Positions 1 through 52,356 are shown, numbered from the stretch's first letter. The stretch is 64,000 bases of DNA from an uncultured Acidimicrobiaceae bacterium (GCA_964579415.1 CAZOGW010000003.1:7759-71758); one strand, 5' to 3'. Translations and numbers: made by a program. Notes: generated by a model from the letters alone, not told the origin.

Positions 1-2813
1 GGGATGGTCGGGTGCCCGCCGAGCAGGTGCTCCAGCGCGCTGGCTCCCGACCCGTTGGGGTGGGTGGCTTGGGAGACCTGGGGCAACTGTTGGGGGTCGC
101 CGAGCAGGATGACCGTGGCCGCGGAGATGGTGGCCGCGAGGGTGTCAGCCAAACCTAGTTGTCCGGCCTCATCCACGATCAGCACATCCACGGGATGCGC
201 ACGCATGTCCTTGCTGGCGAACAGCCACGGGGTCCCGCCCACGACGTTGTAGTCGCCCGTCGCGCAGGTGCCGTTGTCGTCGATGTAGTCCACGCCGCGC
301 ACGCTCCCGCCGGTGGCCTTGCGCACGGCGCGCAGATCACCACCGTCCTCGGCGAACCGGTCGACCACGGCCTGCAGCTGGTTGTCGATGGCGTAGTGAC
401 TCAGGGCGGTCACACCCACCCGCTTCCCCTGGCCGACGAGGGCGCGGATGACGTGGGCGCCGGTGAAGGTCTTGCCGGTCCCGGGCGGACCTTGCACGGG
501 GACGCAGCTGGCGTCCAGATCACCAGCCCACCCGCAGATCGCCTCGTAGCCCCCGACGAACCTGCCTCCGGCCGGGCCGGTGCCGGGCCGGAACCGGGGT
601 AGGTCCCGGCGCAGCATGGCGTGCCCGACGGAGGTGGCGGCACCGTCGAGCATGCGTTGGGCGAGGTCGGACAGCGCCTGCTGCTTGGTCTTGGTCGGGA
701 ACTTCTGGTAGTGGACCAGGTGGGTGGGGGACACGCCCGCGTCGATCGCCTCCTGGTCCCAGATGAGCTTGAGGAGGCCCGCTTCGCGGTCGATCGCGGC
801 GACGTTGAAGAAGGCCCATTTGTGTTCCTGCAGGGCGAGGATCAGCGTCGAGTCGGGCTTTATCTCGGGGTCGACCGGCTGCGGGGGGAAGGTGAACACC
901 GCCGCTTGCCACTTCAGCGGCCTGCCGGTCCTCGTGCTGAGCCGATCCTCGAACTCGCGGAAAGCCAGGCCCGCGATCGCTTGGGGCGATTCCCGCTGGT
1001 CGGCCTCCTCGGCGATCGAAAGCCGAAGGCAGTCCGCAGCCACGGCCCGGTCCTCGCGGCGCCAGTAGCCGAGCAGGTCGCCCATCAGGTGCTCGGGCGT
1101 ACCCGGGCCATAGGCGTGCAACGCCTCGATCCGGGCGTCCAGCTCGGGGTCGGGCCTGCCGGCCTCGACCAGGGCCGGCGGCCAGGCGAGCTCGGCCGGG
1201 CGGTGGGCCACGAGCCAGTCGCGCACTGCGCGGGTGGCACGCACGTCGTCCTCGTTGTACCGGGCGATCCGGTCCAGCCGGGACCCATCCAGATCGGCGG
1301 TCCAGGCCTCGTACTCCACGACCGCGCCGGCTCCCCGGTCGATGTCGTGGCTGCGCACGTACTCGGTGAGCCGCTCGACCTGCTTGAGGCCATAGGACTC
1401 CACACCGATTTGGACCGAGCTCACGATGATCGGGTACAGGTCCACAAACGTGCCGCTGGTGACCAGCTGCTCCAGCTCCAGCTCGGCCACCCCGTACTCG
1501 CGGGTCAGGCGCTCCAGGGACGACCGCTCGGTATGGTTGTAGTGGTAGACGTGCATGTCCGGGAAGCGCTGCTTCCGCTCGGTGAGATGGTCGACGAGAC
1601 CCCGCACCGCTTGCGCCTCCTGGGCCTGGTCGTGCGCCCAGAACGTCCGATACCCCCAGCCGTCGCGTCCGTGCTCGATCAGGCCGAACAGGAAGAACAG
1701 GCCCACCTCCGGCTTCCAGAACGGGTGGCCCTCAAAGTCCAGGAACACGTCCCCGGCGTGGGGCCTGGGCAGGGCCGCCAGACCGGCCAGCTCCACCGGG
1801 TCGGTCGCGTCCTCGGCCTGATCGGCGGACGGGTCGGCGGCATGCAGGATCGGGTCCAGCAGCTGGAACGGGGGCCGCTCGTCGGGGGCGTTGCGTGCCC
1901 GGACCTGCAGCGCCGCCTGGGTCACCGACCGGGTCAGCCGGTCGGCGTCCAGGTCGGGCAGCACCCCCTCGAACCCGGCCAGCTGCGCGATCGTGGACAC
2001 CCCCCCTGCCTCCAGCACCACCCGGTCGGCGCGGCGCAAGCCGGCGACATGGACCAGCGAGTCCTCGGCCCGCCACCGGTCCTGGCAGACCTGTTCGAAC
2101 TCGCAGAACGCGCAATGGCCACAGGGTTCCGGCCTGGTGGGCTGCTGGGGCGGGGCCGCCACCACTGAGGCCAGCTGGGCGCGCAGCCGGCGCCAGTACG
2201 CCAGCACCTCGTCCACCCGGATCGACTCCCGCCCCCCCGCGCCCAGCTCCAAGTGCATCAGCTTGGGCAGCGTCCCCGTTCTCGCGGCGAGCGCGTCGGC
2301 GTAGAAGCACAGCTGCAATACGTGACCAGGTTTGGCCTCGCGGCGGGCCAGCTTGGCGTCCACCGGTTGGTAGCCGAACGATCCATCGCCGTGATCCACA
2401 CGTTCGAGGAAGTCGGCGACCCCGCGGATCCCGTCATGCACCAACGGCATCTGGTACAGCACGTCGTGGCCCTCGTCCAGGATCGGCGCGACTCGATCGG
2501 TCCACCGCTGGAACGACTCGCCCCTCGCCTTCCCCGGCACCTCAAGCACCGTCCGCCCTTGGGCGCGGTACTTCACCAGGACCGCCTGCTCGTGCTGAAG
2601 TCCCTTGGCCTTCAGCATCTCGGACATCGCGCCAGCCCGGAAGCTGGCCGGTGCCCTGATGCCCTGGTCCACTTCGTGCTGCAGGCTCAGGAAGTGCGCA
2701 CAATCCAGCCACGCCGTGATCTTGGTCGGAGTCAGCAGCACAACGGTCACACTCGAATAGTCGCCCTCCGACGGTGGCCAAGGCCGAGTGAGGCCGTGAT
2801 CGCGCCGCGCCAT
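1..2813 (-). CDS. RecB-family (PD-(D/E)xK) nuclease fused to SF1B (DNA2/Upf1-type) helicase; 3' end lies beyond the window start; diverged paralog of the gene at 48826..52356
   Basis: The minus-strand frame is absent from the ORF track because it runs off the window edge. From ATG at 2813 it reads MARRDHGLTRPWPPSEGDYSSVTVVLLTPTKITAWLDCAHFLSLQHEV... The Walker A motif GPPGTGKTFT is encoded by the reverse complement of 462-491. Near 1-160, IVDEAGQLGLADTL...LLGDPQQLPQVSQATHP is about 60% identical to LVVDEAGQFALAPTL...LLGDPQQLPQVSQGTHP in the 1176-aa protein at 48826. The 515-aa plus-strand ORF 621..2168 is its antisense shadow. Confidence 0.8.
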   Translation of the reverse strand, partial: MARRDHGLTRPWPPSEGDYSSVTVVLLTPTKITAWLDCAHFLSLQHEVDQGIRAPASFRAGAMSEMLKAKGLQHEQAVLVKYRAQGRTVLEVPGKARGESFQRWTDRVAPILDEGHDVLYQMPLVHDGIRGVADFLERVDHGDGSFGYQPVDAKLARREAKPGHVLQLCFYADALAARTGTLPKLMHLELGAGGRESIRVDEVLAYWRRLRAQLASVVAAPPQQPTRPEPCGHCAFCEFEQVCQDRWRAEDSLVHVAGLRRADRVVLEAGGVSTIAQLAGFEGVLPDLDADRLTRSVTQAALQVRARNAPDERPPFQLLDPILHAADPSADQAEDATDPVELAGLAALPRPHAGDVFLDFEGHPFWKPEVGLFFLFGLIEHGRDGWGYRTFWAHDQAQEAQAVRGLVDHLTERKQRFPDMHVYHYNHTERSSLERLTREYGVAELELEQLVTSGTFVDLYPIIVSSVQIGVESYGLKQVERLTEYVRSHDIDRGAGAVVEYEAWTADLDGSRLDRIARYNEDDVRATRAVRDWLVAHRPAELAWPPALVEAGRPDPELDARIEALHAYGPGTPEHLMGDLLGYWRREDRAVAADCLRLSIAEEADQRESPQAIAGLAFREFEDRLSTRTGRPLKWQAAVFTFPPQPVDPEIKPDSTLILALQEHKWAFFNVAAIDREAGLLKLIWDQEAIDAGVSPTHLVHYQKFPTKTKQQALSDLAQRMLDGAATSVGHAMLRRDLPRFRPGTGPAGGRFVGGYEAICGWAGDLDASCVPVQGPPGTGKTFTGAHVIRALVGQGKRVGVTALSHYAIDNQLQAVVDRFAEDGGDLRAVRKATGGSVRGVDYIDDNGTCATGDYNVVGGTPWLFASKDMRAHPVDVLIVDEAGQLGLADTLAATISAATVILLGDPQQLPQVSQATHPNGSGASALEHLLGGHPTI

Positions 2814-2854
2814 TTGGCGCACTGGCAACTCAGCCCTGGAGCTAGGGCGTGTCT

Positions 2855-3391: not shown

Positions 3392-3425
3392 GACCCCCGA
3401 ATCGAGCGGATCCTTGTAGTTCGAC

Positions 3426-4278: not shown

Positions 4279-7200
4279 TCAGGACTCGAAGGTGTAGCGC
4301 AGGGCCTTGGCGGTGCGGATCCCTCCCAGGCTGACGGAGCCCTGCGGGAGCACATTCAGATGGTTGAGCGGATCGGTGATGATCCGGACCTCCGGACCCT
4401 TGTCGCCCCGCTCGACGTTGCCGACCACGACGAGGAAAAACTGCTCGGTCACACGGGCACGACGGAACTCCGAGTTGGTAAGCGAAATCATCTCCGGGAT
4501 CGGGCCGGCATAGACCTTCAGCTCGAAGAAGTTCTCCAGGTCGTCGATCGCGTCGGCGCCGACATGGCGTTGGTGTCGGATGTCGATGATCTGTTGCTCG
4601 TCGCCGCCGAGTATGCGCCGCACAAGCGCCAGTCCGACCGACTCGCGCTCTGAGTCGGTGTAGTTCTTGGTGGGGCGTCCCCCCTCCGACGGTTTCTTGG
4701 GCTTCGACGGATCAGGATCCCGGGGCCCGCTTACCGGGGATGTCGACTTCATGAAGGTAAAGCTAGCCCGTCCCGTCCCCCCACCGACAATCTCGCCATC
4801 CTCATTCCTCAGGGTCAGGTTGTCCGGGTCGACGAGCATCCTGGTCGGCTTCGCTGGGCTCGCCTCGGAGGCCGCGGGCGCCTTCACGCGCTTGGTCTGG
4901 GAAGTGTCCTCGGGGGTCGAGCGCCGGTCCTTCCCCTGTTCGGCCAACTTCCGCAGGAGTTCCTCACTGCGCTCGTCGCGCTTCTTCTTCCACTCGGCGT
5001 CGAGCCGCGCCGCCGTCGTGATCTCTTCCTCGCGGTGCCCGTCGAGGGCGATCGTCCAAGCTGCTATCCAGTCATGAGCGACCCGGCGAGCGTCGCTGTC
5101 GAAGACCGAGGCGATGGCGTAGGCGCCTGCGCTTGGCGACCAGATCGCGGCTTCGTCAGCGACAAAGAACGCCCCAGCGGCCAGGTCCAGCCAGGCGTTC
5201 ACCGGGACTGTCTCGTCGAGGCCGCCATTCGGCTCGAGCAGCCTGACCCGCAGTTCCGGCGACTGCCGGACGCTCAATGCTGCCAGCTCGTCCCATGAGA
5301 CGCGCAGACTCTGCTCGGCCTTCGGGTCGCTCCGCGCGAGGTCCGCCCGGAGGTTAGCGATAGCCCCGGAGAAGACTTGCGTCAGGTTCGGGTCGTAAGC
5401 GGCGCTGTCGGCATCAATCACGTCCCCGTGCGAAGCGTCGAGGAGAGTCAGCCTGAAGGCGCCGATCAGGGAATCGAGCTGCGCCAGTGACCCCCCTGGG
5501 CTCCAGATCGGCACGCGATCCTTGAGGGCCTCGACGATCAGTTCGTTATGCGTCGCGTAGACCGGCCGCTTGCGTTCCCACCGATCACCGACCCAGACCG
5601 CCGCCTTTCTAGGCCTTCCCACTTCGCTCTCGGGTGCTCCGGCCAGCACCCGGAGCGCTTCGAGCATCACGAGCTTCTCGGCGGGGGTGAGCGATTTCTT
5701 GCGCGCGAGTTGGCCGAGCACTCGCTGCGCGTCATGGGCGCTGGGTAGGTGGATGCCGAGCAGCGTCCAGAGCGAGTCGGTACCTGACACGGAGGGCACG
5801 AAGTCGCGCATGCGCCCGAAGATCGGCGGACCGGCGAGCACCACGCTCGGGCGGCGCCAGCCACTTCGGGTCGCGATCAGGCCCTCGCCTCGACCGAAGG
5901 CGTCCCGGGCTGGACCCGCCGGCTGGCCGCCGAGGCGGTTGCCGCGGACCTGCGCGGCCAGCGCCTGGTAGAGCGGTGCCGCGAGGTCTTCAGCCGCCTC
6001 TGGCGTCAAGTTCGTATTGGCGCGCACTGCTTCGAGCTTCAGGATCAGCTCGGAAGCTGTCGGATCGCCCGCCACCCCGATGCTGGCCAGCACTTCGCGG
6101 TATGCCTCGATCTCGAGGGCGGGGCTCAGGTAGCGGCGAGGGTTGTCGCCGTAGAGGGCAACGGTCGCCGGACTCTTGATCCGCAATTGCCCCGGGGCCG
6201 TCGCGGTGCCGTTCTCTGAGGGCAGCCATGCGATCGAAGCGGTGCTGCTGACCCACCAGGCCTCGACGATGCCCTTGTTTTCCCAACTGTAGTAGGGCCT
6301 GGCTGCGCTGACTGTCGCGTGGTCGCCCAGACGATCCCAGGCCCGTGCGAGGGTCCCCAGCACTGCACCCGCTCGCCGGACCTGCTGGGCAGCGTCCTTC
6401 TCCTTCGCGATGCTGCTGAGGACGGCTTCAAGGTCGGGCGACGTCCAGTCACGTAGCGTGAAGGTCGCCTTGGCCTGCCGCAGTGCTTCACGCCGGCGCA
6501 GGGGTGAGCCTGGTGCCGAATCAGGTACGCCAGGACTGTAGTTCGACAGCCGGAATTGGTTGGCCGGGTGACTCTTGATGCGGGGGGCTACCTCGGCACC
6601 GAGCAGCCGGAACAGACGTTGGGCCCCAATGCCGCCGCCGTCCCTCCGGAACTTCTCCGAGTAGCGCCTGTCGATCCAGGTCAGCCCATGGGTCTTCCCT
6701 GCTGCCACGAACCAGGTGTTGACCTCTCGTTCGATGAAGTACGCATCGCACGGACGTGCTTGGACTCGCTTGCGCTCCCCGGAACGATCGTAGGTGACCG
6801 CGTCGACCTGGACCGCTTGGCCAAGGCCGAGGCCAAGTCCTGGGCGCTCGGTGTCCGGGATTGCTTCGAGTGCTCGGCGAAGCCCGTCGACCTGGGCGTC
6901 GGTCAGAGGGGTTTTCAGCATGGTTCCCGCCGTCCCAGCGCCGGCCAGCACGAGCAACGCGTCTGCGCTGGTCGCTGATGCCCGAAGCCATCTCTTCTGC
7001 TGAAGCCAGTCACGGATCACGGTCCACCCCGCCTGATCAATGAACGTCGGGTGGAGCCGCGCACCGACCCGCAGCAGCTCCCACAGGGGGTCGGGGTCAG
7101 GATCTGCCGGGAGCAGGACGGCTAGGCCGGGACGGCTGGACGGTGTGACGCGGGAGCCGTCCTCGAGCACGAGGCAAGCTCGTGACTCGAGCGCGGCGCT

Positions 7201-8787
7201 CATGCCCGCATTGACCGCGATGGCCAACAGTTGGGCAACGAACTGCGGCGTCCGCTGTTCGTCACCCAACAGGGTGCTCGCGGCCTGCACGCTCACCATC
7301 GTTGGCGTCATGGCACCGATGTCCCACAGGTCGTCCAGCACGTCGCGCCACCGATCACCCTCAGAGCGCGCCTCGGCGGCCAGAAAGCCGCGTGTTCCTG
7401 CGATCAGGATCACGTCATCCGCGGAGAGAAGCGAGGTGAGCTCGTCTGCCTCGTAGGCGAGATCACTCAAGCGGTAGGTGGTTCCTTCAGATTCAAACGT
7501 CAGGGCTTCGGCGAACTCAATACGTGCTCTCTGGAGCAGATGCTCTGCGAAGCCGGCGCGGAGTCTGCCGGTCGTGCGGTCGTCGGCATCGAACTCGGCG
7601 GTCGTCGGAACGGTTGCCCAGCTGTGGGCTGGCGCCTGTAGGAAGGCGTCAAGCGCCGCGTCTCGCCAGAGGTCGCTGAGCAACGGAACGAGCGCCAGGT
7701 TCCAGTCAGTGTCGGCGATATCGCGCCTGGACGGCTGAGGATCGAACTGTGCCAGCATCCGGAACGGCAGAGAGGTTCTGCGAACAGGCAAGCCGACATG
7801 GATATGCCCAGTGTCACCTTCGAAAAGTGCGAACGCGATGGCCACCGGCGTGCGAGAGCCCAGCGCCTTCCCCGCCCGCTCGACGCCTTCAGGAGTACGA
7901 GCGCTACGGGTGTAGATCAGCCACTCCCGGCCGTCAGCAGCCGACACTCGGCGCCGAGCCGTGCGGTCACCCGCCAGCGGGAGCAACTCCTCAGGGCCGA
8001 GCTCCAGGTGCAGCCTGGCGATCTCGTTTCCAGCTTCGTCATCGAGCCGTACCGACCTCAAGTGTCGGAGAAAGACCAGACCGGCGTCATCCCAGTACTT
8101 GAGCCACTTCTCGACGTCATTCGTGCTGATGGCCGCTCGCGTGAAGGGGATAGCGAACGTGGTCCATGAGCTGTCGACTCGGGGCCAGCCGATGTGCCCG
8201 TCCAGCGGCTGGATGGTGTTGGAGCTGAAGCGAACATGAAAGTGGCCCTGGTGGACGTCGAGAACGTCCGACAGCGAATGGAGCGTCTTCAACCCGATTC
8301 CGAAGCGGCCGAGCTTCGCCTCGTCGGCCACTTTGAGGCTGAGCCAGGGGATCGCCAGTGCCCACACGTCATGCAAGGTGAGTGCCGCACCATTGTGCGA
8401 GAACAACAGTTGTGAGCTGGAGGCGTCGATGGCAACAACGGCGTCGGATGCACCCAGATCGTCAGCGTTCTGGATCAGCTCGGCCAGCCCTTGAAGACGG
8501 TCGTCGCTGAGGTAGGCGGCGCTGTCACCAGCCCGCTGGAGGGCGGACCGGATGGACTTCGGCAGACTGTGCAACCGCTCGACCAACGCAAGGACACCGG
8601 CGTCGGCCGCAGCCTCGTCTGCCGGTGTGAGGGAGACGGTGCGCGGGGTCTCAGGGTCATGATCTGCGACCAGATGGGCCACCTCGGACGCCTCACGCGC
8701 CTCGAATACGCGCGGCGTCAACCCATTCGCCATGCCGCCTCCCGCCCGGCTCACGGACGCTGCCTGATCGATCATCTCGCAGTCCAC
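4279..8787 (-). CDS. Giant GHKL/HATPase_c (sacsin-like) ATPase with C-terminal DUF3883 (NO VEIN C-terminal-like) domain
   Basis: 1502-aa ORF. The Bergerat-fold N-box LAELIQNADDLGA lies near the N-terminus. The C-terminal region ...ILGGDEQQIIDIRHQRHVGADAIDDLENFFELKVYAGPIPEMISLTNSEFRRARVTEQFFLVVVGNV resembles DUF3883. Confidence 0.7.
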   Translation of the reverse strand: MDCEMIDQAASVSRAGGGMANGLTPRVFEAREASEVAHLVADHDPETPRTVSLTPADEAAADAGVLALVERLHSLPKSIRSALQRAGDSAAYLSDDRLQGLAELIQNADDLGASDAVVAIDASSSQLLFSHNGAALTLHDVWALAIPWLSLKVADEAKLGRFGIGLKTLHSLSDVLDVHQGHFHVRFSSNTIQPLDGHIGWPRVDSSWTTFAIPFTRAAISTNDVEKWLKYWDDAGLVFLRHLRSVRLDDEAGNEIARLHLELGPEELLPLAGDRTARRRVSAADGREWLIYTRSARTPEGVERAGKALGSRTPVAIAFALFEGDTGHIHVGLPVRRTSLPFRMLAQFDPQPSRRDIADTDWNLALVPLLSDLWRDAALDAFLQAPAHSWATVPTTAEFDADDRTTGRLRAGFAEHLLQRARIEFAEALTFESEGTTYRLSDLAYEADELTSLLSADDVILIAGTRGFLAAEARSEGDRWRDVLDDLWDIGAMTPTMVSVQAASTLLGDEQRTPQFVAQLLAIAVNAGMSAALESRACLVLEDGSRVTPSSRPGLAVLLPADPDPDPLWELLRVGARLHPTFIDQAGWTVIRDWLQQKRWLRASATSADALLVLAGAGTAGTMLKTPLTDAQVDGLRRALEAIPDTERPGLGLGLGQAVQVDAVTYDRSGERKRVQARPCDAYFIEREVNTWFVAAGKTHGLTWIDRRYSEKFRRDGGGIGAQRLFRLLGAEVAPRIKSHPANQFRLSNYSPGVPDSAPGSPLRRREALRQAKATFTLRDWTSPDLEAVLSSIAKEKDAAQQVRRAGAVLGTLARAWDRLGDHATVSAARPYYSWENKGIVEAWWVSSTASIAWLPSENGTATAPGQLRIKSPATVALYGDNPRRYLSPALEIEAYREVLASIGVAGDPTASELILKLEAVRANTNLTPEAAEDLAAPLYQALAAQVRGNRLGGQPAGPARDAFGRGEGLIATRSGWRRPSVVLAGPPIFGRMRDFVPSVSGTDSLWTLLGIHLPSAHDAQRVLGQLARKKSLTPAEKLVMLEALRVLAGAPESEVGRPRKAAVWVGDRWERKRPVYATHNELIVEALKDRVPIWSPGGSLAQLDSLIGAFRLTLLDASHGDVIDADSAAYDPNLTQVFSGAIANLRADLARSDPKAEQSLRVSWDELAALSVRQSPELRVRLLEPNGGLDETVPVNAWLDLAAGAFFVADEAAIWSPSAGAYAIASVFDSDARRVAHDWIAAWTIALDGHREEEITTAARLDAEWKKKRDERSEELLRKLAEQGKDRRSTPEDTSQTKRVKAPAASEASPAKPTRMLVDPDNLTLRNEDGEIVGGGTGRASFTFMKSTSPVSGPRDPDPSKPKKPSEGGRPTKNYTDSERESVGLALVRRILGGDEQQIIDIRHQRHVGADAIDDLENFFELKVYAGPIPEMISLTNSEFRRARVTEQFFLVVVGNVERGDKGPEVRIITDPLNHLNVLPQGSVSLGGIRTAKALRYTFES

Positions 8788-10796: not shown

Positions 10797-10801
10797 CCGC
10801 T

Positions 10802-41092: not shown

Positions 41093-41093
41093 G

Positions 41094-42323: not shown

Positions 42324-42334
42324 GAGGCAGCGCG

Positions 42335-45067
42335 ATGACCGAGATCGAGCACCGGTACGCGATGTTCGTTAGAGGACTCGCGGATCGGCTCGCTATGCCC
42401 GCTCCGGATATCCAGGCCGAGCTGTCCGGCCTGCGTGAGGCGTGGGCGCAGCCCCTGCCTCGCGAGCACCGCCTCGTGAGGCTGCCACCCGATGTGTGGG
42501 GGCGGCTGGCCGCGGCGATCAACGGCCATCGGTTCGGAGCCGACCCGTACGACCGGTTCCTCCCACCGGCGATCCTGCGAGGCCTCGACGCGACGTCGGC
42601 GGAGGGGAGGGGGGCTCTCGAGTCGGCCTGGCCGCTGGTCCAGACGTGGCTGGCCGTCCAGGCCGGGCTGTCGACAAACGCCGACAGCCTTCGGCTGATC
42701 AATGAGCGCTACGCGCCACACGTCTGGACCCAGCAGATCGACGAGGGCGACGATCTCGGCGAGGATGCCGATGGGCGTCACCAGCCCGCGAGTGACGGCC
42801 AAAGCGAGACCGAGCGCGGCGGGGGGCGTACCCCGATGGGGCGCGCATCCGAGCCAGCTGGGCGCACGCCGGCCTCGCCCGGGGTTGCCCTTCCACTGGA
42901 TGCGGCCGCGCGCCGCCAGCTTGCACGCTTGCAGGACTCTTTGCCCGACTCGGCCGCGCAGCGAGTCTGCCTGCCCGCGGTGCTGCTTGGGCTGTGGTGT
43001 GGCTCGCTGCGCATCCCGCGGCTGGCATCCGAGTGGGACGAGGTGCGTGGGCTGGTCGAGGAGGGGAGTACCGATGCCGTGGAGAGTCTGCAGCAGGTCG
43101 CTGCGATCCGAGTCTCGATGCTGGCGGAGAACTCCATCGGCGGCCTGGTCCCGGACGCGTGGGAGCGATTGGTGACCTGGGCCTACGCCCGGGCCTCCCG
43201 GTGGGCCGGACAGCGCACGCTCGATCCGGTCCTGCACGCCCAGCTCATCGAGGGCTGGCGGGCCGACCCGCTCCGGGGTGAACCGGTCGGCCCCGGCCTG
43301 GCTGCCAGCCCACGCTGGTCGGCCACTGTGGTCGAAGCGATCACCACCGGCAGCGCCCCCGAGATGACGACCGACGCCGACGTCGTGGTCTCCCGGCCGG
43401 CCTCCACCGCCGATGGGCTGCTCGCCGAGCTGGACGATCTCGAGGGCCTGGCGGAGGTCAAGACGGCCGTCCACGAACTGGTGCAGCAGGTGCAGTTCGA
43501 CCAGGCACGTCGGGTGCAGGGCCTGCCCGTCGTGCCGATGACACGGCACCTCGTCCTCATGGGCAACCCGGGCACGGGAAAGACGACAGTCGCACGGCTG
43601 ATCGGGCGCATCCTGCATGCGGCCGAGGCACTGCCCAGCGCGACGTTCCTCGAAGTGCGGCGAGGCGACCTCGTCAGCAAGTACTACGGCGAGACCGAGA
43701 AGCGGGTCCGCCGGGCCATCGACCAAGCCAAGGGTGGAGTGCTCTTCATCGATGAGGCGCACGCCCTGGCCTCTGGCGATCGGGACGAGTCCGGTGCGCA
43801 CCTCCTCCCGGAGCTCGTCGCCGGCATGGAGAACCAGCGCGACGAGTTCGTCCTCATGCTGGCCGGGTACTCCGCACCCATGCAGAAACTGCTGTCCTCG
43901 GACCCCGGCTTGGCCGGCCGGTTCGGCAGGATCCTCAGCTTCCCCGATCTCAGCGACGACGCCCTGACCTCGGCCTTCCTCAAGCGGGCCGCGGCCAGCA
44001 GGTACCGTCTCGCCGACGACGTCGAGGGCGCGGCGCGCTCCTACTTCGCGCGGCTCAACCGGGGCCAGGGCTTCGCGAACGCTCGTGAGGCACGCAGCCT
44101 GTTCGAGAGCGCGGTTGCCCGGCTCGCGTCCAGGTACGCCGCGGATCGTGAAGCGGTGGACGTAACCGTCATCACGGCTGACGACATCCCCAGGCCTGCG
44201 GGGCCAGGTCACATCGACGAGCCTGCATTGGCGCAGGCGCGCGCTGGGATCGACCGGCTTGCGGGACTCGAGTCAGTCAAAGCCGCGCTGTCCAAGGTCG
44301 CGGACAAGGCGCGACTCGAGCTGCTGCGCGTGCAGCGCGGGATCGCAGCGAAGCCGGTGGTGCCCGGTCACTTCGCGTTCGTGGGGCCGCCGGGCACCGG
44401 AAAGACCACGGTCGCCCGGCAGCTCGGGCAGCTGTTCGCGGCACTCGGTGTGCTGCGCTCCGGGCACGTTGTGGCGGCCAACCGCTCCACTCTCGTTGCC
44501 GAGTTCATCGGACAGACCGCTCCCAAGGTGCGCGAGCAGGTGCAGGCGGCGCTGGACGGTGTCCTGTTCGTCGACGAGGCCTACGCGCTCATGCCGGCGG
44601 ACGCCGCGCGGGACTTCGGAGCCGAGGCCGTGGCCACCCTGGTGGAGGAGATGGAGACCCACCGCGAACGGCTGGTGGTTGTGCTGGCGGGCTATCAGGA
44701 GGACGTCGATCGGCTCCTCGACGCCAACCAGGGATTGCGGTCGCGCGTGAACAATGTGCTCCAGTTCGAGGCCTTCACCCGAGACGAGTTGCGCGTGGTC
44801 GCCGACCAGATGGCTGCCGACTCCCGACTCGTGCTCGAGCCGGACGTGGCCGACCTGTTGGCCGAGCGCGCTTTCGCTGCCCGCAGCGAGCCTGGTTTCG
44901 CGAACGCGCGGGCCATCCGCAACCTGCTCGACGAGGCGGAGGGTCGACTGGCGGCCCGCCTGTCGAGCAGGCCGGCCGACCAGGTCGCCACGCGCGAGCT
45001 CTCGCTGATCACCGTTGCAGATGTGCCTGCAGCGGTCAGCCGGGAGCGCATCATCGGGTTCGTATAG
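42335..45067 (+). CDS. Protein with unknown ~400-aa N-terminal region and two tandem CbxX/SpoVK/EccA-type AAA+ ATPase domains (910 aa)
   Basis: ATG at 42335, 12 nt after the UvrD-like stop; the track ORF starts earlier at 42119 inside the upstream gene. Two copies of the LxxLxGLxxVK...HLVLMGNPGTGKTTVARLIGRIL...GVLFIDEAHAL pattern: VVPMTRHLVLMGNPGTGKTTVARL/GGVLFIDEAHAL and VVPGHFAFVGPPGTGKTTVARQL/DGVLFVDEAYAL. Confidence 0.8.
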   Translation: MTEIEHRYAMFVRGLADRLAMPAPDIQAELSGLREAWAQPLPREHRLVRLPPDVWGRLAAAINGHRFGADPYDRFLPPAILRGLDATSAEGRGALESAWPLVQTWLAVQAGLSTNADSLRLINERYAPHVWTQQIDEGDDLGEDADGRHQPASDGQSETERGGGRTPMGRASEPAGRTPASPGVALPLDAAARRQLARLQDSLPDSAAQRVCLPAVLLGLWCGSLRIPRLASEWDEVRGLVEEGSTDAVESLQQVAAIRVSMLAENSIGGLVPDAWERLVTWAYARASRWAGQRTLDPVLHAQLIEGWRADPLRGEPVGPGLAASPRWSATVVEAITTGSAPEMTTDADVVVSRPASTADGLLAELDDLEGLAEVKTAVHELVQQVQFDQARRVQGLPVVPMTRHLVLMGNPGTGKTTVARLIGRILHAAEALPSATFLEVRRGDLVSKYYGETEKRVRRAIDQAKGGVLFIDEAHALASGDRDESGAHLLPELVAGMENQRDEFVLMLAGYSAPMQKLLSSDPGLAGRFGRILSFPDLSDDALTSAFLKRAAASRYRLADDVEGAARSYFARLNRGQGFANAREARSLFESAVARLASRYAADREAVDVTVITADDIPRPAGPGHIDEPALAQARAGIDRLAGLESVKAALSKVADKARLELLRVQRGIAAKPVVPGHFAFVGPPGTGKTTVARQLGQLFAALGVLRSGHVVAANRSTLVAEFIGQTAPKVREQVQAALDGVLFVDEAYALMPADAARDFGAEAVATLVEEMETHRERLVVVLAGYQEDVDRLLDANQGLRSRVNNVLQFEAFTRDELRVVADQMAADSRLVLEPDVADLLAERAFAARSEPGFANARAIRNLLDEAEGRLAARLSSRPADQVATRELSLITVADVPAAVSRERIIGFV

Positions 45068-45202
45068 GTCCGGTGGCGGCGCCGAGTCCCCGGTTCCGCG
45101 GCACCATGACGTAGCCGACCTCGGCGCAGGCGCCCCCTGGCCCCGAGCTCCCGCGCGAGACTGGCCCGCGAGGTCTCTTCGATGCGTGGGGAGAATGCGG
45201 AC

Positions 45203-46048
45203 ATGTCGCACGTACCCTTCGAGATCATCCCTGGAGACCTCGCCTCGCCGGTCGTCATGCACGTCCCGCACGCCGCCACGTGGATCGAGCCGTCGGTGCG
45301 TGCCGACATCCTTCTGTCCGATGCCGAGCTTGCCGCCGAGCTCGCCGCGATCACCGACGCGATCACCGACGTCGTCGCCGAACGGGCGGCCGCTGCGGCC
45401 AGCATGCGGCCGTGGATCCTCGTCAATCGGACCTCCCGCCTCGTCGTCGATCCAGAGCGATTCCCGGACGAGCGTGAGGAGCTCAACAAGGTCGGAATGG
45501 GCGCCGTCTACGAGCGAACGACCACCGGTGCGGTCCTGCGCAGGCCGACCCCCGCCGAGCGGCAGGCCCTGATCGACGACTACTTCACGCCCTACGCGGA
45601 AGGCATCGCGCAGCTGGTCCGGGACCGGCTCGCGGAGGTGGGAACGGTCACGATCCTCGACGTCCACTCCTATCCACAGGTGCCGAATCCGTACGAGCTG
45701 CACGTCGACCAGCGGCGACCGGAGGTCTGCGTCGGGACCGACGAGCTGCACACGCCGACGGAGCTGCGGGAGCAGACGCTCGCCGCCATGCGCGCGGCCG
45801 CCCCGACCGGGGACGTGGGCCTCGACGCGCCGTTCTGGGGCTGCTACGTCCCCCTCGACCAGTACGGCACGAACCCCGCCGTGCGTGCCGTCATGGTGGA
45901 GATCCGCCGCGACGTGGTCGCGAACCACCTCGATCCCCTCGTCGAGGGCGTGGCCGCGCTGGTCACGCGGATCAGCGAACTGGGGCGGGCCACGGACGCG
46001 GGCGCTTTCGGCCTCGCCGGATCGCCGGAGCACTGCTCGCTGGGGTGA
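45203..46048 (+). CDS. N-formylglutamate amidohydrolase (FGase, PF05013) family protein
   Basis: PVVMHVPHAATWIEP matches the family's N-terminal HxPHAGT-like motif. Start taken at the second ATG, MSHVPF. Confidence 0.65.
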   Translation: MSHVPFEIIPGDLASPVVMHVPHAATWIEPSVRADILLSDAELAAELAAITDAITDVVAERAAAAASMRPWILVNRTSRLVVDPERFPDEREELNKVGMGAVYERTTTGAVLRRPTPAERQALIDDYFTPYAEGIAQLVRDRLAEVGTVTILDVHSYPQVPNPYELHVDQRRPEVCVGTDELHTPTELREQTLAAMRAAAPTGDVGLDAPFWGCYVPLDQYGTNPAVRAVMVEIRRDVVANHLDPLVEGVAALVTRISELGRATDAGAFGLAGSPEHCSLG

Positions 46049-46156
46049 TCGAGGCCTAGGAGCCTTCCTCGGCGCCCTCCACCAGGCGCCCCGGTTGTGT
46101 CAGACCGTCGTTGCACCATCGACGAGACACAGCGACAGAACCGGGAAGGACCGACG

Positions 46157-46834
46157 ATGACGACTCTCACGAATGACCCCTCGACCGCCAGGCACGACCC
46201 GGCCGCTGCGGGATGCGCGCCGGTCCTCGACGACTCCCGCCGCGTCGTCGCTTCGAGGGAAGGCTTCTGCGGTCGCCCTGACGATGCGACGCTCGCCGAG
46301 GCTCATCGCCTGGCTCGGCGCGTCGCCCGACGGATGCTCGGCTCCGACGCCCGCGACGGCCTCGATGCCGAGGATGTGGCCCAGGTGGTGCTGCTGCGGT
46401 TCGCCGACATCGACCTCGCGACACTGGGCAACTGGCGGGCCTGGATCACGACGATCACCCGCAACCGGGCCCTCGACTTGCTGCGGGCGGAGCGTCGTCA
46501 TGGGCACGAAGCCCTCGGTGACTCCCGGGACCCGCAGGACCAGCGGGCGGACGCACCACTGCCCCGACAGCTGCGGCAGCTCGGCCCGAGTGGCGAGGTC
46601 ATGGCGCGGATGGCGCTCCGACAGTCCGCTGCGGTCCTCGGGCCGCGCGAACGCCAGGTCCTCATGGCGCACCTGCATGGGTGGTCCAACCAGGAGATCG
46701 CCCACCGCCTGGGCTACGCGAGCCCCGGATCGGTTGCCGTCATCCTGACCCGCGCACGCCGACGGGTGCGCACTGCCTTTCCTGAGGGCCCCGAGCGCAG
46801 CCTGCTGCTCGGCGACGTTCGGGGCCTCTACTGA
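46157..46834 (+). CDS. ECF-type sigma-70 family RNA polymerase sigma factor
   Basis: Region 2 ...AWITTITRNRALDLLRAERR. Region 4 HTH LGPRERQVLMAHLHGWSNQEIAHRLGYASPGSVAVILTRARRRVR. GGAAGGA Shine-Dalgarno-like sequence then ATG at 46157. Confidence 0.75.
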   Translation: MTTLTNDPSTARHDPAAAGCAPVLDDSRRVVASREGFCGRPDDATLAEAHRLARRVARRMLGSDARDGLDAEDVAQVVLLRFADIDLATLGNWRAWITTITRNRALDLLRAERRHGHEALGDSRDPQDQRADAPLPRQLRQLGPSGEVMARMALRQSAAVLGPRERQVLMAHLHGWSNQEIAHRLGYASPGSVAVILTRARRRVRTAFPEGPERSLLLGDVRGLY

Positions 46835-46969
46835 GCCGCCCACGACCTGCCTGAACGGCCAAGGGCGGCTGTTCACAATCGCCAGCCCTCGTTCGTCGAC
46901 CAGATGACGACTGATCCACCCCCATCGCCGACCCATGCCTGACCAGACCAACGCAAGGAGACCCCAGCC

Positions 46970-48295
46970 ATGAAGATCAACACCTTCCTCGACGTCGACG
47001 TCGTCGCCATCGAGAACGACGACACCGTCACAGTCATGATCGACATCCAGGCCCCAGAGGCACCGCAGAACCCGGACGCGCCCCGCCCGGAGCACACCGC
47101 GATCGTGGTTCTCGATCGCTCGGGCTCGATGTCAGGCGGTCGGCTCGAGGCCGCCAAGCGTGCCTTGATCGACCTCGTGGCGCGGCTGGACGACCGCGAC
47201 ACCTTCGGCCTGGTCACGTTCGACAGCCAGGCGGAGATCGTCATCCCCGCCGGCCGGGTCGCCGAGCTCGGTCGCGAGCGCATCCATCGCCGGATCGCCG
47301 CCGTCCGCACGGGCGGCAGCACCGACTTGTCGAGCGGATACCTGCGCGGACTGTCCGAGGCGCAGCGCGCCGCTGGCGCCGCAGGTGCCACCATCGTGCT
47401 GCTGTCCGATGGGCATGCCAACGCGGGCATCACCGACCCGAAGGCCCTGCGTGACCTGGCCGCCGGTGCCGGAGCGCAGACGATCACGACCTCCACCATC
47501 GGCCTGGGTCACGGCTACGACCAGGACCTGCTCGCCGAAATCGCCACTGGCGGCAACGGCAACCACTCGTTCGCCGTCGACGGCGACGCCGCCGCGGCCG
47601 CCCTGGCCGGAGAGATCGAGGGTCTGCTGAACAAGACCGTCCAGGCTGCGAGCCTGCTCATCCGCCCGACGAACGACGTCGCGACGGTGAGCATCCTCAA
47701 CGACCTGCCGATCCATGCCGTGCAGGGCGGACTGCTGGTCGAACTGGGCGACTTCTACTCCAGTGAGAACCGCCGCCTTCTCATCTCCTTCGCCGTGCCG
47801 GCGATGGCCGCGTTGGGTCTGGCCCAGATCGCCGACCTGGAGATGTCCTACGTCGAGCTTCCCGCGCTGCGGCAGCACACGGTGCGGGTGCCGATCTCGG
47901 TGAACGTGGTTCCCGCCGACCTGGCGGCGGAGCGCGTTCCCGCCCCGGAAGTGCATGCTGAGCGGATGATCCTCACCGCCCAGCAGGCCAAGCGGGCAAG
48001 CGAGGAAGCGCTGGCTGCCGGCGACTTCCAGGCTGCGCAGGCCTCGCTGGACGGGGCGATCACGCACTTTGCTGCGATGGCGCCGGCCGACCTGACCGGT
48101 GACGCTGCCTCAGAGCTCGACTGGCTGCGCACGACGCGCGAAGGCCTCGACCATTGGGACAGCGCCTACACCTCGAAGCGTCTGCGCTCGGACCGCTCCC
48201 GCAAGCACCGCGGGTACCGGACCCGCGAGCAGGGCGGCGAGAAGGGTCCCCACGGGACAAGTGAGCGGGGCTCCGTCGAGGAGTCGCAGAGGTGA
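46970..48295 (+). CDS. von Willebrand factor type A (vWA) domain protein
   Basis: MIDAS motif VVLDRSGSMSGGRLEAAK, and downstream TDLSSG...VLLSDGHAN. AAGGAG Shine-Dalgarno-like sequence upstream of ATG. Confidence 0.75.
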   Translation: MKINTFLDVDVVAIENDDTVTVMIDIQAPEAPQNPDAPRPEHTAIVVLDRSGSMSGGRLEAAKRALIDLVARLDDRDTFGLVTFDSQAEIVIPAGRVAELGRERIHRRIAAVRTGGSTDLSSGYLRGLSEAQRAAGAAGATIVLLSDGHANAGITDPKALRDLAAGAGAQTITTSTIGLGHGYDQDLLAEIATGGNGNHSFAVDGDAAAAALAGEIEGLLNKTVQAASLLIRPTNDVATVSILNDLPIHAVQGGLLVELGDFYSSENRRLLISFAVPAMAALGLAQIADLEMSYVELPALRQHTVRVPISVNVVPADLAAERVPAPEVHAERMILTAQQAKRASEEALAAGDFQAAQASLDGAITHFAAMAPADLTGDAASELDWLRTTREGLDHWDSAYTSKRLRSDRSRKHRGYRTREQGGEKGPHGTSERGSVEESQR

Positions 48296-48807
48296 GCGGC
48301 ACCGGGACTGGGACAGACGGCGCTGCCAAGAACGCTCCGGACGAGGCCAGTGGCGCGCCCATGACACCGCGCGAGCTGCTCGAGCGCTACGAGCAGCGGC
48401 GCGAGACCGTTTCGGAGGAGCGCCTGCTGCGAGCCATCGTCGAACCGGACCCGTCGAAACCAAGGATCGACGACGACCCGGTCGCGGTGGCGCTGCTCCA
48501 GGCGACGGGGCCCGTGATCCAGGCAGTACTGGCTGTTCTGACCGCGCACGATCCGATCGGTGTTGTCTTCGAGGAGAACTCTGACGAATACGAGCCAGAA
48601 GCACGGACGATCGCGCTGCGCCTGATGATCGCCACGGCCCAGGTGGAGGGGCCGGCCGCATTGGCTACTGGTTTCAGCGGCCTGGGGCTGCTCAACGACG
48701 TCCGCCGAATGGTCCACGGCGAGTTCGTGCGCTGGTTCGACGAGGAGACTGCCGGCCCAGAGATCAAGTACACCGAGGTTGCACGGGAGATCCTCGATCT
48801 CCGGTGA
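48292..48807 (+). CDS. Hypothetical protein (171 aa), coupled to the vWA gene by a GTGA overlap
   Basis: Start overlaps the vWA stop. No motif recognised. Sits immediately upstream of the nuclease-helicase gene. Confidence 0.5.
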   Translation: MSGTGTGTDGAAKNAPDEASGAPMTPRELLERYEQRRETVSEERLLRAIVEPDPSKPRIDDDPVAVALLQATGPVIQAVLAVLTAHDPIGVVFEENSDEYEPEARTIALRLMIATAQVEGPAALATGFSGLGLLNDVRRMVHGEFVRWFDEETAGPEIKYTEVAREILDLR

Positions 48808-48825
48808 CCGTCGGGGCACGGGGCC

Positions 48826-51800
48826 GTGGCTGTCATTGAACGGGTATGGCGCGGACCTCGTGGGGAGAGTCTGCCGAACAGTTGCGATGTGTGGAGGGAT
48901 GGGTCGATGTTCCTGATCGACGGCGAACTGCGGTGGAGCGCGTCCGACCTGTCGGTCGCCGCAAGGTGCGAGTACTCGGTGCTGCGCACGCTGGACTACA
49001 AGCTGGGCCGGGCCGAGCGGATCGAGACACCGCCGAATGCCCTGATGGAGCACATCGCGCGGCTCGGTGACCGGCACGAGGAAACCTTGCTGCGCGAGCT
49101 GACCGCGGCGGGTGATGTGATCGCGCTGGAGCACGTCCGGCCGCCCTACTCCGCGACCGCTCTGCGCGCTGCCTCTCAGGCGACCATCGAGGCATTCCAG
49201 GCCCGCCCCTCCGTGGTGTACCAGGCCGCCTTCTTGGACGGTGAGTTCTTCGGATACGCGGACTTCGTCGAGAGGTCCGAGGACGGCTGGCTGGTCTCCG
49301 ACGCGAAGCTGGCTCGTTCCGCTAAGCCGGTCGCGTTGCTGCAACTGGGCGCCTACGCCGATCAGATCGCGCGGCTCGGGCTGCCGGTGTCCTCGACCGT
49401 GTCGCTGCTCCTGGGCAATGGTGAGCGCGCCGACTTCCGGACCTCCGACGTTCTGCCGGTCTTCGCGGAGCGCCGCGACCGGCTGCGCCAGCTCCTGGCC
49501 GACCATCGCGACGGCGGTACCCCGATCCAGTGGGGCGATGACCGGTACGTCGAGTGCGGCCGATGCGACGAGTGCGGGCAGGCCGCCGAACGGTCCAACG
49601 ACATCCTGCTCGTGGCCGGGTTGCGCGCCGACCATCGCCGCAAGCTCAGAGCCGCCGGCATCACGACGATCGGCGACCTGGCTCGCGCTACAAACCGGCC
49701 GAAGGGGATCGCGCCAGCCACCTTCGCCCGGATCCACTCGCAGGCGGCGCTCCAATGGGATCAGCTGCGGGCCGGACCAGACGCGCCGATCCGCTACGAG
49801 CTCCGGCCGAGCGCTGCGCAGACCCTCGCGCTGCTGCCTGCCCCCTCGGTCGGAGACCTGTTCTTCGACTTCGAGGGCGATCCACTCTACGACGAGGGCG
49901 ACCTGTCGCGGACGGGCCTGGAATACCTCTGGGGGGTCCTCGACGCCAGCGGCTCCCACCAGGCGGCGTGGGCGCACAGCTCGGCGGAGGAGCGCGAGGC
50001 GTTCGAGCGGTTCATCGACGACGTCGCCGAGCGGCGGGTCGTCCATCCCGACTTGCACATCTACCACTACGCGGCTTACGAGACGGCCGCACTCAAGCGC
50101 CTCGCGATGCGCTACCAGACCCGGGAGAAGCAGCTGGACGACCTGCTGCGCTCGGAAGTCTTCGTCGACCTGTACGCGACCGTCCGCGGATCGGTGATGA
50201 TCTCGGCCGGCTCGTACAGCATCAAGAAGCTCGAGCCGCTCTACATGGGCGACGACCTTCGGTCTGCCGACGGCGTGCAAGCAGGCGACGCGTCGATCCT
50301 CGCCTACCACGAGTTCCGCGACCTGCGGGCATCCGAACCGAGAGAAGCGGCGGCCCGGCTCGCAGCCCTCGAGGATTACAACGCCTACGACTGCCGCTCA
50401 ACCCTTCGGTTGCGCGACTGGCTGCTGGAGCGTGCCGTTGAAGCCGGAGTCCGCGACATGATCGAGCCTCGGGCCTTGGACCACCAGGGTGAGCAGGACT
50501 CCGATCAGGACCCGGTGTTCCTCGAGCTCATGGCCCGATCGGGCCCGGCTCGGCACGCTGACCGGACCAGCGAACAGCAGGCGCACGCCATGCTCGCGGC
50601 AGCCATCGACTACTACGGCCGGGAGCGCAAGCAGTTCTGGTGGGAGCACTACGACCGCCTCCAGCACCCCGTCGAGGATTGGTCGCACACGCGAGACGTG
50701 TTCTCGGTGGAGTCCGTCGTGGTCGTGTCGGATTGGGAGGTCCCGGACGGCCGGGCGCGCAACGCCCGCCGGGTCCTGCGGCTCACTGGTGACTGGGCCC
50801 CGGGCAGCAAGCCGAGTGCGTCGTTCCAGGTCGTGTACGCGACTCCCATCCCGCCCGGCGCGGTCGGCCCCGCGGGGGGGCGCTATGGGACGGCCGACGC
50901 CGAGTCGGTCCGACCGGATGAGCTCGATCCACGAGTGGCCCACGTGGTCGAGGACCGCCCGCTCGCCGACACCTTCGCAGACCTGCCCGTGGCGCTGGCC
51001 CCGCCGAAGCCACCCGGCACCAGGCTGATCGAGGAAGCGATCAGGGCCGTAGCTGCGGACGCCGCGACAGCCCTCAGCCTGCCGGATTCGGCTGCGCTGG
51101 ACATCCTCTCCCGGCGCCCCCCGAGACTCCGCAGTGGAGCAGCCCTGGCTGCCGTCGGCTCGACGATTGACGACGTGGTCGCCTCGCTGCTGGCGATGGA
51201 CGACTCGTATGTGGCGATCCAGGGCCCCCCAGGGACGGGCAAGACGTACACCGGGTCCCGGGTCATCAGGGAGCTGGTCAAGGAACACCGCTGGCGGATC
51301 GGTGTGGTCGCCCAGTCCCATGCGGTGGTGGAGAACATGCTCGGCGCGATCGTCAAGGCGGGGCTGGATCCCGCGCTGGTGGGCAAGAACGACAACGACT
51401 CTGGCGACCCCACGTGGACCGTCCTGAAGAAGAACGTGGGGCCTCGGGTGCGGTTCCTGCAGGAGCATGCCGGCAGCGGCTGCGTGCTCGGCGGGACAGC
51501 GTGGACGTTCGCCAACTCCAAGCTGGCGCAGGCAGGTGGGCTGGACCTTCTGGTCGTCGACGAGGCGGGCCAGTTCGCCTTGGCCCCGACGCTCGGCGCC
51601 TCGGTGTCGGCCCGGCGTCTGCTGCTGCTCGGCGATCCGCAGCAGCTGCCCCAGGTCAGCCAGGGCACACACCCCGAGCCCGTCGACGAGTCCGCGCTCG
51701 GCTGGCTGATGCGCGGCCACGACACACTCCCGCCGGAGCACGGGTACTTCCTCGGGCAGACGTATCGGATGCATCCACGCCTGGCCGAGAAAGTGTCGGG

Positions 51801-52356
51801 GCTGTCGTACGAGGGACGGCTGACCGCCGCTCCGTCGGCTGGTGCGCGACGACTCGACGCAGTGGAGCCGGGCCTTCACGTCGTGACGCTCGCCCACACG
51901 GGCAACCGAAGCGAGTCGCCAGAGGAAGCGAGTGCAGTCGTCGCCCAGGTCCGGGCGCATCTGGGCAAGACGTGGCATGACCCTGACGATCGGACCACTC
52001 CACGCCCGCTGGCGGCCCGGGACTTCTTGGTCGTAGCCCCCTACAACGCGCAGGTCGCGCTCATCCGCCGCGAGCTCGCCAGGGCCGGGCTCGAAGGCGT
52101 CCGGGTGGGCACCGTCGACAAGTTCCAGGGCCAGGAGGCGCCGATCGCCATCGTCTCGATGACCGCCTCATCGCACGGGGACGTCCCCCGGGGCATGGGC
52201 TTCCTGCTCAGCCGCAACCGCGTCAACGTCGCGGTCTCCCGCGCCCAGTGGGCCGCGATCCTGATCCGCTCCGACGCGCTGACGGCCTACATGCCCACCA
52301 GCGCTCATCAGATGACAGAGCTGGGCGCTTTCGTCGGCCTATGCCGAACATCGTGA
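48826..52356 (+). CDS. RecB-family nuclease (PD-(D/E)xK with Cys cluster) fused to SF1B (DNA2/Upf1-type) helicase, 1176 aa; paralog B of the gene at the window start
   Basis: N-terminal ARCEYSVLRTLDYKLGRAE... and ECGRCDECGQ, a Cas4/RecB-like nuclease with a Cys cluster. Helicase motifs QGPPGTGKTYTG, LVVDEAGQFALAPTL, LLLGDPQQLPQVSQG and YRMHPRLAEKVSGLSYEGRL; C-terminal VDKFQGQEAPIAIVSM...NRVNVAVSRAQ. Confidence 0.85.
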   Translation: MAVIERVWRGPRGESLPNSCDVWRDGSMFLIDGELRWSASDLSVAARCEYSVLRTLDYKLGRAERIETPPNALMEHIARLGDRHEETLLRELTAAGDVIALEHVRPPYSATALRAASQATIEAFQARPSVVYQAAFLDGEFFGYADFVERSEDGWLVSDAKLARSAKPVALLQLGAYADQIARLGLPVSSTVSLLLGNGERADFRTSDVLPVFAERRDRLRQLLADHRDGGTPIQWGDDRYVECGRCDECGQAAERSNDILLVAGLRADHRRKLRAAGITTIGDLARATNRPKGIAPATFARIHSQAALQWDQLRAGPDAPIRYELRPSAAQTLALLPAPSVGDLFFDFEGDPLYDEGDLSRTGLEYLWGVLDASGSHQAAWAHSSAEEREAFERFIDDVAERRVVHPDLHIYHYAAYETAALKRLAMRYQTREKQLDDLLRSEVFVDLYATVRGSVMISAGSYSIKKLEPLYMGDDLRSADGVQAGDASILAYHEFRDLRASEPREAAARLAALEDYNAYDCRSTLRLRDWLLERAVEAGVRDMIEPRALDHQGEQDSDQDPVFLELMARSGPARHADRTSEQQAHAMLAAAIDYYGRERKQFWWEHYDRLQHPVEDWSHTRDVFSVESVVVVSDWEVPDGRARNARRVLRLTGDWAPGSKPSASFQVVYATPIPPGAVGPAGGRYGTADAESVRPDELDPRVAHVVEDRPLADTFADLPVALAPPKPPGTRLIEEAIRAVAADAATALSLPDSAALDILSRRPPRLRSGAALAAVGSTIDDVVASLLAMDDSYVAIQGPPGTGKTYTGSRVIRELVKEHRWRIGVVAQSHAVVENMLGAIVKAGLDPALVGKNDNDSGDPTWTVLKKNVGPRVRFLQEHAGSGCVLGGTAWTFANSKLAQAGGLDLLVVDEAGQFALAPTLGASVSARRLLLLGDPQQLPQVSQGTHPEPVDESALGWLMRGHDTLPPEHGYFLGQTYRMHPRLAEKVSGLSYEGRLTAAPSAGARRLDAVEPGLHVVTLAHTGNRSESPEEASAVVAQVRAHLGKTWHDPDDRTTPRPLAARDFLVVAPYNAQVALIRRELARAGLEGVRVGTVDKFQGQEAPIAIVSMTASSHGDVPRGMGFLLSRNRVNVAVSRAQWAAILIRSDALTAYMPTSAHQMTELGAFVGLCRTS

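Follow-up and report, generated by a model that had tools for sequence, protein, structure and literature searches.

Two anciently diverged Cas4-like nuclease and SF1B helicase proteins flank a defence island in an uncultured Acidimicrobiaceae bacterium

We analysed a 64,000-nucleotide stretch of DNA (the window) from an uncultured Acidimicrobiaceae bacterium (GCA_964579415.1 CAZOGW010000003.1:7759-71758) that carries two genes for proteins joining a RecB-like nuclease to a superfamily 1B (SF1B) helicase, one cut by the window start on the minus strand (copy A) and one complete on the plus strand (copy B). Judged by their sequences, both are intact and belong to one large bacterial family, in which they represent separate clades of ancient divergence. 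They are true homologues with one architecture, consisting of a Cas4/RecB-like nuclease, a DEDDy exonuclease fold, a helical stalk with a beta-barrel, and an SF1B helicase. We consider it probable that these clade-diverged members of the TIGR03491-SF1B family are single-chain enzymes of DNA end resection or degradation. The finding is genuine, if not remarkable: a rich defence island is flanked by two new and diverged representatives of a family already known and annotated.

Both open reading frames (ORFs) reported by the initial annotation, a minus-strand frame with an ATG at 2813 and a plus-strand frame at 48826..52356, were borne out. No stop interrupts the copy A frame between the window start and 3143, and the database protein P0121 (1151 amino acids), encoded on a 72,848-bp NCBI contig, is the full copy A: it agrees with all 937 residues encoded in the window (100% identity) and supplies the 214 C-terminal residues beyond the window edge. 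Because homologues begin about 22 residues after the annotated ATG 2813, GTG 2750 is an alternative start and may be the true one. The deposited copy B protein, P0001, whose contig has that same length, starts at ATG 48907 with a Shine-Dalgarno sequence, GGAGGG, 8 nucleotides upstream; since homologues also begin there, we take ATG 48907 as the more likely start over GTG 48826. The two genes and their domains lie as follows.

1..2813, minus strand: copy A, codons 1-937 of 1151, the remaining 214 falling beyond the window edge (complete product P0121)
~2079-2738, minus strand: copy A, Cas4-like nuclease (Pfam/NCBIfam profiles)
~1209-1748, minus strand: copy A, RNase_H_2/DEDDy fold (Pfam)
1-518, minus strand: copy A, SF1B helicase, beginning only
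48907..52356, plus strand: copy B, complete (P0001, 1149 amino acids), in an ORF open from 48826
~48907-49611, plus strand: copy B, Cas4-like nuclease
~49795-50442, plus strand: copy B, DEDDy exonuclease fold
~50512-51006, plus strand: copy B, stalk and beta-barrel
~51154-52353, plus strand: copy B, SF1B helicase

The relationship between the copies is more distant in the helicase, and closer in the nuclease, than had been proposed. BLASTP alignment of the complete proteins yields 42% identity across 428 amino acids of the helicase (E 6e-79) and 32% over 510 amino acids at the N-terminus (E 3e-46), with nothing alignable over about 190 central residues, and global identity in a multiple alignment is 30.4% over 1073 columns; the figure of about 60% identity previously given for the helicase motifs is therefore an overestimate. 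The N-terminal nuclease regions, which had been said to differ clearly, are instead homologous, and the unalignable part is the middle of the protein. Homology thus reaches beyond generic SF1 motifs and the catalytic residues are kept; confinement of the similarity to those motifs and loss of residues, the two outcomes named beforehand as fatal to the proposed relationship, were looked for and neither was found. At the DNA level the copies match only in a 51-nucleotide block (the GDPQQLPQVSQ motif) and a 104-nucleotide block, and on these grounds recent duplication or gene conversion was rejected.

Both proteins match profiles for the nuclease, exonuclease and helicase modules. For NCBIfam TIGR03491, the TM0106-family RecB-like nuclease, the scores are 203.6 bits (copy A) and 149.9 bits (copy B), both above the curated cutoff of 97.45 bits; Pfam PDDEXK_1 scores 32.5 bits in copy A and 21.2 bits in copy B, the latter slightly below the 22-bit cutoff, and RNase_H_2 (PF13482) clears its cutoff of 22 with 75.6 and 65.0 bits. 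Pfam AAA_11, AAA_12 and AAA_30 domains occur in both copies, and AAA_11/AAA_12, Walker A and B, motif III and fold similarity are the SF1B features of the Upf1/DNA2-like kind that both possess. We assessed residue conservation in 16 sequences drawn from both clades, with a wider set of 58, numbering residues by P0121. Invariant among the 16 are the nuclease residues D134, D152, K154, Q167 and Y171 (D, D-x-K, Q-x3-Y), the four cysteines C38, C231, C234 and C243, which are predicted iron-sulphur (Fe-S) ligands, the DEDDy residues D359, E361, E429, Y519 and D523 (D-x-E, E, Y-x3-D), and the helicase motifs GPPGTGKT, DEAGQ and GDPQQLPQV; two of these, the first D of D-x-K and the N-terminal cysteine, fall short of invariance in the wider set, with conservation of at least 90%. 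The earlier call to check the PD-(D/E)xK residues was thus answered in the affirmative for both copies, and the Fe-S cysteines and helicase motifs are retained with them.

Structural modelling places the remaining parts of the chain. The AlphaFold2 model of copy B (predicted local distance difference test score, pLDDT, 90.1; predicted template modelling score, pTM, 0.84) renders the poorly conserved central segment as a helical stalk and beta-barrel, the usual 1B-type insertion of Upf1-like helicases. Foldseek comparison of this model with the PDB returns Dna2 5EAN first (E 4e-24), followed by IGHMBP2 and Upf1, with Upf1 and DNA2 as near-equal best structural matches over the helicase half. 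A separate model of residues 290-520, the exonuclease fold (pLDDT 92), finds its best PDB matches among archaeal family-B polymerases (1TGO, E 2.8e-4, template modelling score 0.56), and we read the match as probably lying in their 3'-5' proofreading domain. A profile built from the sequence of this exonuclease fold retrieves no PDB entry at E <= 10, so that the domain is placed by fold comparison alone. The family accordingly unites three enzymes in one chain, the SF1B motor being preceded by a Cas4-like Fe-S nuclease and a DEDDy exonuclease fold, with catalysis and cluster binding predicted from residues and models.

The two copies belong to well-separated parts of this family, for which an exhaustive phmmer search (E <= 1e-30) returned 1,962 clusters at 50% identity, the top 150 of them mostly full length. 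Among the top 120 relatives of each copy, scores within a clade (at least 989 bits) are cleanly separated from those across clades (at most 440 bits), and the nearest non-self relatives are 66% identical for copy A and 69% for copy B. On a neighbour-joining tree, copy B groups with Nocardioides, Kocuria, Janibacter and a large mycobacterial group; the copy A clade is mainly of Acidimicrobiia and also holds Isoptericola, Jiangellales and a second set of Mycobacterium/Mycolicibacterium genes, and a third group of Gaiellales, Solirubrobacterales, Chloroflexi and others falls between them. Because of these groupings we judge the split between A and B to predate the actinobacterial classes. The separate deep clades and non-overlapping scores agree with the original proposal of an old duplication or independent acquisition rather than a recent repeat. 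It had further been held that two copies bracketing a defence island are unusual; having two copies is not clearly so: one Ilumatobacteraceae metagenome-assembled genome (MAG) holds two copies 74.5% identical to each other, another MAG holds two that are 45% identical, and both clades occur in mycobacteria. No single finished genome with both clades appeared among the best 80 loci of a genome-collection scan.

Comparison with known systems shows partial likeness to several. The copies resemble Nhi of Staphylococcus in joining a nuclease and an SF1 helicase in one polypeptide and, in this window, in their defence-island location; the two differ in that the PADLOC Nhi profile (PDLC02372) matches neither full-length copy, even at E <= 10. 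As the same profile weakly matches another helicase in the window, it is present and working in the library, and the Nhi membership suggested earlier does not hold for either copy. Across all 5,027 PADLOC models neither copy has a full-length match. The best match, to Mokosh MkoA at about 150 bits, covers the helicase core only; MkoA shares this Upf1-like core, but the match spans only profile positions ~770-1080 of 1112, and the N-terminal modules are unrelated.

DNA2 offers a closer parallel, having the same order of Fe-S PD-(D/E)xK nuclease, stalk/barrel and SF1B helicase and being the closest solved structure. It differs in that its phmmer match is limited to the C-terminal helicase stretch (E 1e-15), structural identity is 17-19%, and it is without the PolB-like DEDDy exonuclease domain that the bacterial family carries. 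It is reasonable to suppose that the copies would work like DNA2, which is a resemblance of function and carries no claim of DNA2 orthology. AddAB, AdnAB and RecBCD are multi-subunit complexes with SF1A motors (plus RecD, an SF1B motor) and two RecB-type nucleases, whereas copies A and B each place one RecB-type and one DEDDy nuclease in one chain. This architecture was not found in the searchable literature on bacterial DNA2-like or Cas4-like fusions, where a phylogenomics paper on Cas4 covers UvrD-Cas4 fusions only, and nothing relevant was found in the literature on TM0106.

Going by the models, the likeliest role of these proteins would be ATP-driven degradation or resection of DNA ends. 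In such a mechanism, the SF1B motor would engage a DNA end or a 5' single-stranded tail and move along it 5'->3' with ATP, the Cas4-like domain would cut the tracked 5' strand, and the DEDDy domain would trim the 3' strand, yielding a one-chain enzyme of end resection or degradation that would be a functional analogue of DNA2 or AddAB/AdnAB. An enzyme of this kind would be useful in DNA repair and would at the same time break down linear foreign DNA that lacks protection, a dual role that fits the mixed genomic contexts of the family described below. Several considerations weigh against this assignment. The searchable literature yielded no biochemical or genetic data on any family member; the substrate (DNA or RNA), the polarity and the roles of the nucleases are predicted from folds only; and the helicase core stands equally near to DNA2 and to RNA helicases (Upf1, IGHMBP2, SETX, MkoA). 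Many family members adjoin defence genes or lie within operons centred on ADP-ribosylglycohydrolase (ARG), so that the family may have a dedicated role in conflict, and the scenario in which the island was inserted between the two genes, set out with the island below, draws on base composition alone.

Our survey of 168 related loci revealed both fixed housekeeping positions and conflict-system neighbourhoods, between which the family alternates. In about 16 Acidimicrobiaceae-type loci, pheT-argC-argB-argF-argR-argG-argH directly precedes the gene, and in about 40 clade-B-like metagenome loci the order is FAD-oxidase, P450, TetR, acyltransferase, DeaD, LprE-type lipoprotein, the family gene and a major facilitator superfamily (MFS) transporter. 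Relatives of one protein from the latter loci are all from Mycobacterium or Mycolicibacterium. We take this mycobacterial gene order to be that of Rv1257c...Rv1250 on the H37Rv map, where the family gene would be the counterpart of Rv1251c; by inference, then, the mycobacterial family genes correspond to Rv1251c, an assignment made on gene order. It is consistent with the reported co-transcription of lprE (Rv1252c) and Rv1251c (bioRxiv 10.1101/2023.07.16.549196) and with MSMEG_5044 being listed as the counterpart of Rv1251c; DNA-binding aureolic acids induce MSMEG_5044. The mycobacterial genes at this locus share the family and full-length architecture with our copies, and copy B falls in the same clade; the syntenic group is, however, only 44-49% identical to copy B, and copy A lies in another clade.

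Away from these syntenic positions the contexts are varied. Orthologues in Serinicoccus and Nocardioides Root140 lie among metabolic genes, the Ilumatobacter fluminis gene lies with a Dpd cluster and TY-Chap3/REase-ARP genes, and that of N. ochotonae lies with GmrSD, DUF499, ARPP-1 and an ADP-ribosylglycohydrolase. In Janibacter cremeus (CP115184.1, locus L165, 5056-13465), a same-strand array runs from an NrtR-type regulator through TY-Chap1, ARG+DSPc and two unknown genes to the helicase-nuclease as its last member, after which come two DNA methyltransferases. ARG, TY-Chap and ARPP accompany orthologues in Janibacter, N. ochotonae and GCA_038242265, and contexts of the N. ochotonae and Janibacter type match the ARG-centric systems that have been described as predicted conflict systems (Iyer et al. 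2022, PMC9503650 section 3.8). A PADLOC scan of the 133 immediate neighbours at 36 non-syntenic loci identified SspE, a type IV restriction endonuclease (REase), PbeA (twice), SngA/B, PDC-S11, mad3 (three times) and methyltransferases. Only FGase and vWA, among the neighbours of either window copy, recur across the 168 loci, and hence the family has no obligate partner; here, neither copy is a repeat of the other or has a conserved partner. Tiamat and the other island genes were considered as conserved partners of copy A and rejected, as none recurs next to any of the 168 loci. As a separate observation, the family gene is split in two at the related loci L096 (~10001-13402), L056, L088, L114 and L048; at L096 and L056 the two parts are separated by other ORFs, suggesting disruption by insertions or frameshifts.

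These contexts bear on whether both genes are instead dedicated single-gene anti-phage effectors of the Nhi kind, which would recognise and degrade phage replication intermediates and would owe their island location to this function. We regard this as unlikely, though several contexts speak for it: the window island with its Tiamat, PDC-S53, DruE, type IIG restriction-modification, OLD and SIR2 genes, the defence genes among the scanned neighbours of the non-syntenic loci, the Dpd and GmrSD/DUF499 contexts, and those clade-B genes that end ARG/TY-Chap/NrtR operons, themselves predicted conflict systems (PMC9503650). Set against this context are the absence of any Nhi profile match at E <= 10 or full-length match to a PADLOC model, the housekeeping synteny that is fixed in two large lineages, one of them with a mycobacterial locus that seems to be genus-wide, and the Serinicoccus and Nocardioides Root140 orthologues that sit among metabolic genes. 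As the gene keeps a fixed place next to the arginine operon in one lineage and, in mycobacteria, within the lprE-deaD order, the label of single-gene anti-phage system that the initial annotation attached to such fusions is unproven for this family. We are similarly doubtful of a wider proposal, that the TM0106-SF1B family, Rv1251c included, is a single-chain dual-nuclease DNA-end-degrading anti-phage effector, working either by itself or as the arm of ARG/vWA/chaperone conflict operons that targets nucleic acids. Were the anti-phage reading true, island-side copy A and operon-embedded copy B would be two specialised effectors and not repair enzymes.

Action on RNA in the manner of Upf1, SETX or Mokosh MkoA, for example on transcripts or R-loops, would suit the kinship of the helicase core noted above; both nuclease modules nevertheless come from DNA-processing lineages (Cas4/AddB and the PolB proofreading domain), and we consider such a substrate highly improbable. 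We favour end resection or degradation as the probable activity of both copies. The family is very large, places three nucleic-acid enzymes in each chain and by inference includes a conserved Mycobacterium tuberculosis gene, and we propose it as a reasonable candidate for a further actinobacterial DNA-end-processing pathway or a defence effector, for which copies A and B, one from each clade, would provide convenient test proteins.

The 5' region of copy A carries an insertion sequence (IS) of the IS5 family, present once in the window, between the Tiamat gene and copy A.

2846-3907, minus strand: IS5-family element proper, 1062 base pairs (bp), with 15-nucleotide terminal inverted repeats
3426-3860, minus strand: IS ORF, DUF4096
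2855-3391, minus strand: IS ORF, DDE_Tnp_1

CTAG stands on both flanks (2842-2845 and 3908-3911), and with CTAG included the inverted repeats extend to 19 nucleotides (2842-2860 and 3893-3911). The element had been placed 28 bp upstream of the start codon of one copy, and we confirm this distance for the ATG 2813 of copy A, not copy B; from the alternative GTG 2750 it is 91 bp. It would have landed in this region later, leaving the coding frame of copy A untouched. This proximity raises the question of whether the insertion has silenced copy A and left copy B as the sole working gene. Consensus scans for promoters and terminators around both starts, insensitive for high-GC actinobacterial promoters, found nothing, including no sigma-70-like promoter between the IS and the start, as silencing would predict. 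The same poor sensitivity lessens the force of this negative result, the frame of copy A is fully open with all catalytic residues intact, and IS elements often supply outward-facing promoters. Silencing of copy A is thus quite unlikely in our estimation.

The region between the copies, from copy A at the window start to copy B, had been described as a defence island, and PADLOC confirmed this. The genes in and beyond it are the following.

4279..8787, minus strand: Tiamat TmtA, full-length, 1502 amino acids (PDLC03968, 1331.5 bits, profile positions 7-1481/1486)
9011..13543, plus strand: 222-amino-acid ORF, helix-turn-helix (HTH)/M78 (IrrE-like) peptidase regulator and SF1 helicase
10802-13543, plus strand: PDC-S53 candidate-system SF1 helicase, full-length match (PDLC05035, 1312.3 bits)
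16377-17594, minus strand: tyrosine integrase
17804-21157, plus strand: 1117-amino-acid protein with no Pfam or PADLOC match
21154-25800, plus strand: DruE-like DEAD + MZB/DUF1998 helicase (DruE1, 593 bits)
28025-31363, minus strand: type IIG restriction-methyltransferase (PDLC03631, 704 bits; Type_ISP_C)
31360-34446, minus strand: HKD(PLD)-Snf2 helicase (C3a139, 168 bits)
~36641-38410, minus strand: OLD-family ATPase nuclease (Pfam/PADLOC)
38627..48807, plus strand: same-strand array ending in copy B, with an Hsp70-like NBD+TPR gene first and a UvrD-like gene next
41094-42323, plus strand: UvrD-like gene, starting 2 nucleotides after the preceding stop
42335-45067, plus strand: double AAA+ ATPase (AAA_lid_6)
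Rest of the array, plus strand, in order: FGase, extracytoplasmic function (ECF) sigma factor, vWA and a 171-amino-acid ORF that overlaps vWA by 4 nucleotides
Just past copy B, within 52383-56866: M28 peptidase fragment
53672-54298: IS110-type transposase
55157-56866: SIR2-like protein (weak ThsA/PDC-S25 matches)
58756-59544: DSPc phosphatase-like gene

The genes beyond copy B, the SIR2-like gene among them, indicate that the island continues past it, and no tRNA or clear housekeeping gene was found in the window. Base composition differs along the region: the island genes at 4.2-38.4 kb have a GC content of 0.61-0.68, whereas copy A and the block at 38.6-52.4 kb stand at about 0.70, with third-position GC (GC3) mostly 0.85-0.90 and, for the sigma and 171-amino-acid ORFs of that block, 0.81-0.82. 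This step in GC suggests that a lower-GC island, from Tiamat to OLD (~4.2-38.4 kb), was inserted between resident genes, a suggestion that draws on base composition only. Near copy B lie the vWA, FGase and ECF sigma genes, with the DSPc gene 6 kb away, and no ARG gene was found in these surroundings; the array partly resembles ARG-centric or vWA conflict systems, without the ARG gene, and may be an undescribed system. A 1535-amino-acid minus-strand ORF at 36641-41248 was rejected as an artefact beyond ~38.4 kb, since only its last ~590 codons have matches, and the opposite strand at 38627-41092 encodes the real Hsp70-like/TPR gene.

Within the island itself, the Tiamat gene lies upstream of copy A on the same strand, at a gap of about 400 bp if the IS is removed. 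The 222-amino-acid ORF and the HTH/M78 regulator directly before the PDC-S53 helicase suggest a protease-controlled switch. The DruE-like helicase is translationally coupled to the 1117-amino-acid protein upstream, and if the pair is Druantia-like, this partner is not a recognised one. At 28025-34446, a methyltransferase-specificity protein and a separate PLD(HKD)-Snf2 helicase-nuclease have the appearance of a split Type ISP-like restriction system.

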